Of a stretch of 45,892 nucleotides of DNA, positions 3,001 to 6,000 are shown piece after piece. The position numbers are program-made. How positions within the stretch are numbered: the stretch's first letter is position 1; every line of letters starts with the position of its first letter. The stretch lies in IMG/VR virus record IMGVR_UViG_648276653_000019; one strand, given 5' to 3'. The stretch comes from a virus (lineage: Duplodnaviria > Heunggongvirae > Uroviricota > Caudoviricetes).

Positions 3001-6000
3001 GTACCTGCATGTAGCAGAGGAGGATGATTTCCTCGTCTGTGAATTGCTGCGCTGGTTGCATGCTGCGAAGTTTCTTTTCGCACTCGATGAAGTATCGGCG
3101 TATCTGGCGGCCTTTTTCGTTGCGCTCCACCATAGCCAGTTCTTTGGCTGTATCGAGGGTGAGGTGGTAGTCCTTGCGGTTGTGACCGCCTCTACCAGAT
3201 GTTTGCTTTCCCAAATTGGAAAGCAAAATATAGTCTTGATTTTCAATGAATTTGTATTCTGAAATGCGATTTGTAATCCATGCCGCAAACACCTTTTTCA
3301 CGCCTAAAAAAGCATGCAGATCGCGGGCATTGCAGAGTAGGGCTGTTTCGTTGGCGATAGTGCCGTTGAATACGGGGATGAGTTGACTGGTCATGATGAC
3401 CTCCTTTGAAGTTTTAGTTAGCAATCACCAGTTAGTGGCTGGTGATCGGGTGTCAACTAGAGCCTTCAAAGATGCTCCGGGCATATTCCCCTTGCGGGTA
3501 TTGTATTACGCCTCTCCACCCGACCTTTGTACGGATGTGACTATGCCAAATTGCAGGCATAAAAAAGCCGCAAAGCTATCGGGTGCGGATGACCGCTTTG
3601 AAGTTCTAGTGCGGTCAGTATGCGATAGCTCTGGCGGATTTGTCAAATCATGTGGTCTTTATCTTGCTGTAAGCCGCGCCATTCGGGATTTTCCCCAAAT
3701 TTGGGGGAAACTATCTGCGAAGTATTCACCTTTGACGGCAAGTTTCAGGTTAGCCACGACCTTCCTCCTTTGGCTTGTGAATTTGTATCGTCATGCCGCT
3801 TTGAGTGGTGACTACAATGACAGAACCAGGCTGAAGGCTGTTAAGATTGAATGCTTCGTAAAACGAATCCAATGCCAGTGCTTTTTTATTCTTTCGGTCC
3901 CACCAACGCCATCCCTTGCTACAGGCTACACTGACAATCCACTGTCCACTCCTGTAAGCCATATAAAACCAGATGAGCAAAACCTGAAGGAAGACTATCC
4001 AGTCAATAATCGTATATTTCGCGAAGGAGTCCATTACTTCATCTCCTGCGGCGGTTCTGGTAGAGGCATCCAGTGGGTTACCTCTTTGAGATACAGGTCT
4101 TCGCCATCACCGTCATCCCAAGTGGGATTGCCATCATTAAACCAGTCGCCATATACGCCGACCTGAGTGTTGGGGATGTTTGGTGGGTAGTTGTTTTTAA
4201 AGTCAGCTGCTAACACATAGCATTGTCGCTCTCCCATTTCTGGCATTCGCTCACTACAGCTTATCCAACCATCCGGAATTACCGGAGAGTTGCCACCGGG
4301 AATATTTTCCGGAATATTTTGTTGTGCGTTTTGTGGTTGTTCGGATTTACCCTGAAGCATGGCGGCGCGGCAGGCGTTCCAGCCTTGAACCTTAGCTATT
4401 GCCACAACTGCATCGGTAAAGAACATTCTCGCGGTATCTGGCTCCGGAATTTCATCCGGCACATATGCAGGAGATGGCTTGTCAGCGAGCATTGACATCA
4501 ACGCGCAGATGGTGTCCTCGCTGATTTCAAACATACCACTGGCGTTCTGCGTCGAGGATTTAAGCTCTTCGATAATGCGCTCTTTCGTAAACTCAGCCAT
4601 ATCCCTACTTCCCCTTGATGCTGACATTAACGCCAGCTTTGCGAATCTCATCGGCGCATCTGTTGATAATATTTCTGTGAAACTCACAAAAAATTTTCGC
4701 CGACTGCGGCCCTAATGGGTGAACATCTTGCGTACTCGGCAGCACAACCTCCCGCGCCTCCAGCTCAGAAATCCGCTTCTCTGCTGCTTCCAGCTCAACA
4801 CGCAGCTTCCCTACCGTTAGCGCAATATCCTCGTTCTCCTGGTCGCGGCGTTTGATGTATTGCTGGTTTCTTTCCCGTTCATCCAGCAGCGCCAGCACGG
4901 TAGCTGGATTGGCTGCGGCGATGAATTCAGCATTGGCCTGCTGTTCTATTTGGAAATCTTCATCGAAACCGCTTTCAGGATGCGCTCCTTCAATTCTGCA
5001 AATGGGAATATATCCAGCAGCCTCGCGATGAATTAGTGCATCATCACCATCAAATCGGCCATCTCCATATTCGAGCGACCACTCGCCACACGTTGCTTTT
5101 TCTGCCTTAGCACGTAGTGCCTGATAGTCAATCTTGCTCACTGGTTGCCTCCTGCTTCTCTGCCTTCAACACCATGCGAGAACCATCATCAAGTTCCCAC
5201 GCGATCTCACCACCTTCAGCCATGACCAGTCGCCACACCAATTGAGCAGCCTCATTGGTAACATCACGACCTGGATCATTGCCAACGCGCATACGTCCAC
5301 CTTCAACATCGCGCATTTTTGCCAGCATGATAGTTTTTGATAGCGGTGAAAAACCAAGCTGTAGTCGTGCTGAATTACTCACTGGTTGCCTCCTTTGCGT
5401 AACTGGGCGGCGCTTCTGATCTTTCCACTCTTGACCCCAGCGAAAGCCTTTAGCCAAAGCTTACGGTTGAGTGGATCATCTGTTGAATACGGATTGTCAG
5501 TTACCTCGAGGCCTATTACGGCGGCGTAGATTCCCTCCTCGTAAGCGTTGTCGACGTCTCTGGCATTACCATCTGCATCAATTCTTCTGGCAGGCTTAAT
5601 CTGATTGCTCATGCTGCACCTCCTTCGCGAAGCTGAGTGGCGAATTCATTAAGCTCAGCTAACAATTCATCAGCCCACTGAGCCGCTCTGCTTGCGTAGA
5701 GCATCTCCACACCCTGCGCCCGGACTTCAGCCAGGAAAGCATCGGTGGCTGGGGTGTCTGATTGCAGAGACTTTGCGCGATAGTCATTCCACCCTCTTGC
5801 ATACATGGGATTAACTTGCACTCCATCTTTTACGCAATATGCCTGACCTCCACGGTTGATAACCTTGATTTCGTCCATAGCGCCAGACTTCAGCCCCGCA
5901 TTCTCCGCCGCCAGCGCCGCGCACTTGGCCTCCGCTTCAGCAAATTTACGCACCAGATATTCAGCGTTTGTTTCGTTAACCTTTAAATCACTTGGAATGC

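Follow-up and report, generated by a model that had tools for sequence, protein, structure and literature searches.

A 17-nt gene-start motif repeated in the early-left operon of a lambdoid prophage and its probable role as a boundary sequence

The viral sequence IMGVR_UViG_648276653_000019 (IMG/VR; Caudoviricetes), whose entire stretch of 45,892 nt is referred to below as the window, comprises the left portion of a lambdoid prophage. In E. coli 20KM2222, a 99.9%-identical copy is present beside ybhC, the lambda attachment locus, and a lambda-type att core (attP) was found at 1338-1364. The early-left (erf-to-xis) operon of this prophage lies on the minus strand and runs in the order Erf, 127-aa (amino acid) gene, abc2, DUF2737, 146/152-aa gene, 77-aa gene, DUF7446, Ead/Ea22-like, DUF551, DUF4752, Ant, xis and int. 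Within this operon, a short motif combining a ribosome-binding site with a start codon occurs twice, each copy exactly at a gene start. The anatomy of this motif, its distribution among relatives and its probable function are described here.

Two copies of a gene-start motif flank the DUF7446 gene

The repeated element is an exact 17-nt direct repeat, CTCACTGGTTGCCTCCT, whose two copies are designated A and B (Table 1). Over a longer comparison (5134-5153 with 5375-5394), 19/20 positions were identical. The 16-mer TCACTGGTTGCCTCCT was present in exactly two copies in the window, at 5138-5153 and 5379-5394. The initial annotation had also reported this 16-mer twice; its first position was correct, its second (5377-5392) was 2 nt off, and the exact repeat extends to 17 nt. 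When read on the minus (coding) strand, both copies have the form AGGAGG-CAACCA-GTG-AG, that is, a Shine-Dalgarno (SD) sequence, a 6-nt spacer and a GTG start. Both GTGs are annotated starts in the RefSeq PGAP annotation of the 99.9%-identical prophage, in agreement with the minus-strand GTG start and AGGAGG ribosome-binding site proposed from the sequence. The distance of 6 nt between AGGAGG and the annotated GTG falls, in both copies, within the range of 5-9 nt upstream that is used to recognize coupled gene junctions.

Each copy forms the junction between consecutive small genes, as had been noted initially: copy A joins the 77-aa gene to the DUF7446 gene, and copy B joins the DUF7446 gene to the Ead/Ea22-like gene. 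At copy A, the 77-aa gene stops with a TGA (5379-5381) that overlaps the start GTG (5380-5382), producing a GTGA overlap. At copy B, the DUF7446 gene crosses the motif in the +1 frame, acquires the tail …KQEATSEQD and terminates at 5128-5130, 10 nt inside the Ea22-like gene, giving an overlap of 14 nt. The stop/start overlap originally ascribed to the repeated sequence as such therefore holds for copy A, but at copy B it is replaced by this longer overlap in another frame. At both copies the upstream stop is located on or beside the downstream start, as in coupled junctions. The two copies bracket the DUF7446 gene, and the gene together with one copy constitutes a 241-nt unit. A tandem duplication was rejected as the origin of this arrangement, because only 17-20 nt are repeated and the intervening 224 nt are unique.

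A third, related junction, CAGCTTCGCGAAGGAGGTGCAGCATGAGC, was found between the 146/152-aa gene and the 77-aa gene. It was identical to the common motif context at 21/29 positions; the flanks are alike, but the spacer is different, the start is ATG and the upstream tail reads …QLREGGAA. ATGA overlaps were found at the neighbouring junctions 5609-5612 and 6046-6049.

Table 1. Positions of the motif copies, the related junction and the surrounding early-left genes in the window
Feature	Position	Strand	Description and evidence
Motif copy A	5378-5394	minus	AGGAGG 5389-5394, spacer CAACCA 5383-5388, GTG of DUF7446 gene 5380-5382; direct reading and PGAP start
Motif copy B	5137-5153	minus	AGGAGG 5148-5153, spacer 5142-5147, GTG of Ead/Ea22-like gene 5139-5141; direct reading and PGAP start
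Related third junction, 146/152-aa gene then 77-aa gene	5609-5637	minus	CAGCTTCGCGAAGGAGGTGCAGCATGAGC; direct reading
Conserved first 31 nt of Ea22-like gene	5110-5140	minus	29/31 identical to Sf6 bsq3; shares 3 nt (TGA, 5138-5140) with the end of the 16-mer
Ead/Ea22-like gene, C-terminally truncated	4605-5141	minus	Pfam PF13935, E=2.1e-33; equivalent is a partial pseudogene in PGAP
DUF7446 gene, 84 aa	5128-5382	minus	Pfam PF24233, E=1.3e-18
77-aa gene, no family match	5379-5612	minus	Tail …AAQLRKGGNQ encoded by the motif in frame 0
146/152-aa gene	5609-6049/6067	minus	Operon gene
DUF2737 gene	6046-6210	minus	Operon gene
Anti-RecBCD abc2	6221-6517	minus	Operon gene
Erf single-strand-annealing protein	6924-7529	minus	Pfam PF04404, E=2e-44

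Distribution of the motif and reassortment of its flanks

The distribution of the motif was assessed by scanning IMG/VR for the exact 16-mer. More than 120 viral contigs were among the matches listed, and 133 sites, including the two in the window, were compared. For this comparison, the 240-nt flanks of the sites were clustered by BLAST; an earlier ungapped scan of the flanks inflates diversity at indels (for example, in the DUF551 core), and the BLAST-based clusters were used instead. Proteins were grouped by the adjacent ~70 residues, with residues encoded by the linker excluded. The DNA flanks fell into 19 upstream and 28 downstream clusters. The main connected set comprised 122 sites in 12 x 21 clusters, which were joined in 52 combinations and contained 57 complete four-gamete 2x2 tables. 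At the protein level, 15 families were found upstream and 16 downstream of the motif, and 89% of distinct site pairs shared only the motif and a few additional nucleotides. Three sites (L014, L037 and L117) resembled chance matches. Downstream genes included many Ead/Ea22-like variants (VSKIDYQALRE… or VSEINYQALRE…), as well as the unrelated DUF7446 gene, a likely methyltransferase and a PAPS-reductase-like protein, the last two being labelled from reading of the translations only.

Two further samples were drawn without regard to the motif, one of 80 loci picked by the Erf gene alone and one of 80 loci picked by DUF7446 protein similarity. Among the Erf-selected loci, the exact motif was found in 39/80 and a version with ≤2 mismatches in 63/80, always on the operon coding strand. 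These loci contained 64 distinct SD-spacer-RTGA strings; the motif was the most widespread of them (38 loci, 14 upstream contexts), whereas most of the others occurred in a single context. In the DUF7446-selected loci, the motif was present at the 5′ end of the gene in 57/80 (44 exact, 13 with one mismatch) and at the 3′ end in 60/80 (45 exact, 15 with ≤2 mismatches), and motif-like junctions (≤2 mismatches) at both ends with the 241-nt spacing were present in 52/80. The motif was thus not absent from other gene junctions of relatives, as it would be if its repetition were coincidental; the opposite was found.

Among well-known phages, HK97 contains the exact motif at the end of gp37. In this phage (L204, 2990-3043), the motif is followed by GTGAGCAAGATTGACTATCAGGCACTGCGTGAG, which has no annotation and represents what remains of the N-terminus of a deleted Ea22-like gene. 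In HK620, the motif is present with one mismatch at the hkaH/hkaG junction, where its record (NC_002730, ~3507-3533) includes AGGAGGCAGCCAGTGA. No copy within 3 mismatches was detected in lambda 19000-34000. In a collection of phage records, the motif together with the Ea22 start matched 361 records, mostly from Escherichia, Stx-converting, Salmonella and Shigella phages. When 596 Gb of bacterial genomes were scanned for the exact 16-mer, the matches listed included single scattered ones in unrelated taxa (Streptomyces and Bacteroidales metagenome-assembled genomes) at about the chance rate, a result uninformative on host range.

Gene content bounded by the motif was found to vary, as had been proposed for junctions of this kind. 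One locus (L111) has the arrangement DUF2737-motif-DUF7446-motif-Ea22, and another (L072) has DUF2737-motif-Ea22, forming a filled/empty pair. Eleven loci contain two motif copies, which enclose 241, 584, 589, 761, 1054, 1058 or 1237 nt of differing content. Many E. coli prophages match 4850-5399 of the window (Ea22-like and DUF7446 genes) at ~97%, with the match stopping 5 nt past copy A; upstream, these prophages have DUF2737 in place of the 77-aa gene. The DUF2737 protein ends in …MWRSGKK in the window and in …MWRKGGNQ, on the motif, in many relatives.

Homology also broke off at or near the motif. Of the Erf-selected loci, 12 had alignments to the window that ended at 5153-5154, and 8 had alignments ending at 5132-5140. 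In 68 pairs of sites with downstream flanks ≥97% identical and upstream flanks unrelated, homology ended 0-24 nt upstream of the 16-mer. In 132 converse pairs, the end of homology lay 0-5 nt past the 16-mer (66 pairs) or 13-47 nt past it, in the conserved Ea22 N-terminus (64 pairs).

Junction alleles and competing explanations

Unrelated upstream proteins cross the motif in two frames, ending either in …RKGGNQ, with the stop in the motif, or in …(K/Q)EATSEQD or SERN, with the stop 10 nt downstream. Past the core, only a G at +1 stood out before non-Ea22 genes (10/14), and upstream of the motif moderate conservation was seen in the last ~4 nt only. On these comparisons, the motif is conserved at the nucleotide level and not at the protein level.

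A different junction allele, AGGAG(G)CCGCCCAATGAG, flanks DUF7446 in Salmonella-type relatives (L386-L397 from IMG/VR, ES18 and ST64B-like). In these, the 5′ junction of DUF7446 is AGGAGCCGYNCTATGA or AGGAGCCGCCCAATGA, and at the 3′ junction, AGGAGGCCGCCCAATGA, the gene terminates in frame as …KQEAAQ on an ATGA overlap. In the E. coli allele, AGGAGGCAACCAGTGAG, the spacer is 1 nt shorter than in the Salmonella type, shifting DUF7446 into the EATSEQD tail. The junction has therefore been exchanged as DNA and not kept as protein. As a separate observation, the Salmonella-type 3′ junction and the Ead N-terminus (~46 nt) form an isolated island of 94-98% identity in P22-like phages (L, Emek and PM43) and some coliphages.

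Within DUF7446 units, the motif differed from its consensus at 1.5-1.8% per site, compared with 1.0% for the gene body overall and 2.0% at third codon positions. Because variation in the motif approximates that at third codon positions, its identity across unrelated junctions reflects shared descent, and not selection for an optimal string; the motif is accordingly under no special purifying selection.

Several points weigh against the motif being a site of crossovers. Contigs entered the IMG/VR set because they contain the exact string, and closely related E. coli prophages account for many of them. At about 71% of the sampled sites (95/133, based on cluster sizes and translations), the downstream gene is Ea22-like, and some of the spread of the motif thus represents the start region of the Ea22 family itself. 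When the window minus the 241-nt unit was used as a query, no E. coli genome contained an empty site for the window's own neighbours (77-aa gene and Ea22), and for this reason the filled/empty evidence comes from other neighbour pairs. Joints without the motif also exist in this region: the other end of the block formed by the 152-aa and 77-aa genes, at the DUF2737 C-terminus (6046-6062, 22 loci), has no shared sequence, and a joint inside the 146/152-aa gene at 5936-5943 (32 loci) has no linker. Moreover, 17 nt, or ~30-60 nt with common flanks, is short for efficient homologous recombination, and there is no polarity signal here that places the start of the crossover in the motif rather than attributing the pattern to later selective filtering. 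The predominance of Ea22-like genes and the joints without shared sequence would also be expected under passive retention of the Hendrix type, in which the motif is no more than the start region of the Ea22 family and of a few neighbours, illegitimate joints form at random, selection keeps working ribosome sites, and the motif is a label of joints and not their cause. Also in its favour are truncated Ea22 N-terminal remnants after the motif (HK97; downstream clusters 10, 13 and 15), which indicate nearby illegitimate deletions, and the observation in the literature that boundary sequences are absent from most mosaic joints of phages (PMC3029335, PMC3233612). However, random joining would not put an identical spacer and GTG before ~15 unrelated non-Ea22 families. 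Nor does it explain the presence of the motif on both sides of the DUF7446 gene, the exchange of an in-frame ATGA junction for a motif copy 1 nt shorter, or the loss of homology immediately after the 16-mer in half of the converse pairs. We therefore view passive retention as rather unlikely.

Other explanations fared worse. Convergent selection, by which the string would be an optimal ribosome-binding or coupling sequence that arose independently at each junction, finds some support in the functional character of the SD hexamer, the 6-nt spacing and the start/stop overlap, and in the SD and start positions showing the least variation of all motif positions. Yet 64 different SD-spacer-RTGA strings occur in these operons, the adjacent junction at 5609-5624 differs in its spacer and begins with ATG, variation at spacer positions is close to that at synonymous sites, and Salmonella-type relatives have the other allele at both junctions; furthermore, GTG is a non-optimal start codon. 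This explanation is thus very improbable. The repeats might instead be targets of a dedicated, integron-like site-specific cassette system, or a structured RNA or regulatory element, given that direct repeats bracket a single small gene and that differing cassettes lie between two copies in other phages. No inverted repeats were found in or around the motif copies (5050-5480), RNA folding of the two copies was no better than that of shuffles (z = -0.40 and +1.16), and no Rfam match at E<=1 was obtained in 4000-7000. Given that, in addition, the motif drifts like neutral sequence and the sole nearby recombinase is the lambda-type integrase with its own attP core, both an integron-type cassette and a structured RNA element were rejected, and we consider a dedicated site extremely improbable. 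As for a chance repeat of a strong ribosome-binding site, the window by itself offers modest evidence against it: some exact 17-mer direct repeat appeared in 18/200 composition-preserving shuffles of the window, and the scattered matches in bacterial genomes are likewise what chance would yield. Nevertheless, of the six AGGAGG-N5-8-RTG sites in the entire window, two are the motif copies, which stand in the same register at consecutive gene starts, and hundreds of related phages have the string at homologous junctions. Chance can thus be regarded as already refuted.

A probable boundary sequence and its relation to known systems

We consider it likely that the 17-mer is both the start region of consecutive early-left accessory genes and a short homology island, or "boundary sequence", for crossovers. 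The anatomy and distribution of the motif, the reassortment of its flanks and the positions of the homology breakpoints are direct observations, and we infer that crossovers start inside the motif. Given the perfect SD, the 6-nt spacer and the GTG located on or beside the upstream stop, the genes are probably translationally coupled. Many gene pairs of E. coli-type lambdoid phages, though unrelated, have this string in common, so that it would serve as a short homology island as well. The view offered in the initial annotation, of a shared junction module acting as a plausible recombination linker for ea-region genes, is thus supported by the comparative evidence.

According to this boundary-sequence model, co-infecting phages or resident prophages would cross over at the shared motif. 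One crossover between colinear phages would swap everything on one side while leaving genes and ribosome sites intact, which would account for the observed combinations of flanks. Where the motif stands in the …CAGCTTCGCAA-motif-G context, the shared tract would measure ~27-30 nt; inclusion of the Ea22 N-terminus would extend it to as much as ~60 nt. The probable catalyst is a phage annealing protein, Erf in this prophage and Red-beta, RecT or Sak4 in relatives. Deletion between two direct copies could yield "empty" sites, and the DUF7446 gene between two copies would represent one exchangeable unit. Red recombines diverged sequences efficiently (PMC2327257), and a passage of the same paper cites RecET-promoted recombination at 5-13 bp with a frequency of ~1e-8.

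A more far-reaching version can be put forward only tentatively. Beyond being a passive homology island, the 17-mer may be a portable adapter that spreads between junctions, with host-lineage alleles determining between which phages early-left accessory genes can be exchanged; together with a boundary at the Ea22 3′ end, it would form a cassette-exchange system promoted by annealing proteins. Such an adapter would provide an incoming open reading frame (ORF) with a ribosome site and a start, and would end the upstream ORF in two frames, either by the TGA of the motif or by a stop located 10 nt inside the Ea22 N-terminus.

For lambdoid phages, Clark, Inwood, Cloutier and Dhillon reportedly proposed short conserved "boundary sequences" in 2001, in work on HK620, following the linker model of Susskind and Botstein (1978); such sequences would direct homologous recombination to the borders of genes. 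Passages in PMC3029335, PMC3233612 and PMC2327257 summarize this boundary-sequence model of Clark et al. Like those sequences, the motif is short, conserved, located at an early-left gene boundary and common to phages with unrelated flanking genes; its location at gene boundaries, its non-homologous and reassorted flanks and the breakpoints in the motif-blind samples are the properties by which boundary sequences are recognized. The GenBank record of Sf6 (AF547987) annotates bsq2 and bsq3, and the feature "bsq3; boundary sequence" covers the first 31 nt of the Ea22-like gene 21, immediately beside the position homologous to that of the motif; the corresponding 5110-5140 of the window is 29/31 identical to it. 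In contrast to the motif, the annotated bsq3 does not include the SD-spacer part, where Sf6 has another sequence, and copy A, before DUF7446, consists of the 17-nt core only, without bsq3. In the searchable literature, the exact motif string matched only unrelated primers, and matches to "bsq" were unrelated uses. Taken together, the motif is an ordinary, previously described kind of lambdoid early-left property, known in kind and essentially in place, although certain details may be unpublished, namely the portable 17-nt core before non-Ea22 genes, the two-frame tails and the lineage-specific alleles.

The motif also resembles other known arrangements. Coupled overlapping genes, with ATGA or GTGA overlaps and an SD inside the upstream ORF, are common in phage early operons, and the AGGAGG 6 nt before the start and the GTGA at copy A fit this pattern; ordinary coupled junctions, however, are gene-specific, whereas the motif is common to many unrelated pairs and is crossed in two frames. 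The small DUF7446 gene, being present or absent between the same neighbours, is reminiscent of morons (Juhala et al. 2000; Hendrix). A moron, however, brings along a promoter and a terminator of its own. No promoter-like site was detected in 4500-6300, the sole terminator-like site there was on the non-coding strand, and DUF7446 lies within the pL operon, where starts are probably coupled; the unit was therefore not classified as a moron. Integron cassettes are likewise promoterless single genes bounded by a recurring sequence (attC) and variable in content, but the motif has no imperfect inverted repeats and no IntI-type integrase, and the repeat is itself a ribosome site plus start codon. 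Finally, the Brujita/Island3 rearrangement (PMC3029335) is a single event in one pair of actinobacteriophages, whereas the motif is reused across dozens of gene combinations.

A second context-diverse junction was observed at the 3′ end of Ea22-like genes, where relatives (L124-L202, for example upstream of DUF551-type genes) have …CTGGCATTCGCATCAAAGGAGAGTGA[T/G]ATG and the tail …GIRIKGE. The genes that follow it vary (MSTITKERI…, MATLTKKEQ… or MDGQISIV…). Because of this second diverse junction, Ea22-like genes appear to be bracketed by boundary sequences on both sides. In the window, only a diverged form of the 3′-end junction, GCATCAAGGGGAAGTAGGGATATG, is present at ~4598-4625, and the exact form had no match within 3 mismatches. 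The Ea22-like gene of the window lacks the usual C-terminus of its family, and overlaps in its ORF with the DUF551 gene, which has a long ORF (4034-4687) and its likely start at the ATG at 4600; the truncation and the overlap together suggest a deletion joint. The most context-diverse 16-mer family in the Erf-selected loci was CCGGATGGTTGGATAAGCTGTAGTGAGCG (4248-4276; PDGWISCSE, the start of the DUF551 domain), a score inflated by the ungapped method; its diversity would fit domain-level shuffling of DUF551 proteins.

Some other features of the window were also recorded. Among the repeats of ≥16 nt listed for the window, the only others lay near 14.2 kb, where 3-4 units of CCGCACATGAAGCCGCACAAAC-like direct repeats at 14189-14305, inside the Phage_rep_O gene (13762-14709), are very likely the replication-origin iterons of the prophage. 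The segment 3395-3749 (~355 nt, between Ant and DUF4752) lacks gene annotation in the near-identical RefSeq prophage. Its sole coverage is by a long, probably spurious plus-strand ORF (3393-4166), and the segment contains a 15-nt near-repeat (3404-3418 and 3596-3610). At 8249-8693, several families of imperfect 27-37-nt direct repeats, rich in GCTTC/GCAGC, lie inside a 322-aa minus-strand ORF (8079-9047); phage HF4s has a similarly placed gene of 969 nt (322 codons), annotated as a coil-containing "antitoxin"/phi80 Agt-like protein.

The motif junction reveals no new kind of system. It bears on the debate over mosaic genomes, in which homologous recombination at short conserved linkers is set against random illegitimate joining followed by selection, and it provides a clean and abundant example for the linker view. 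In annotation, it explains the identical starts and the odd common C-terminal tails (RKGGNQ, EATSEQD) of unrelated small exo-xis/ea proteins. The motif is, moreover, a convenient and well-defined substrate for a direct test of the linker model.

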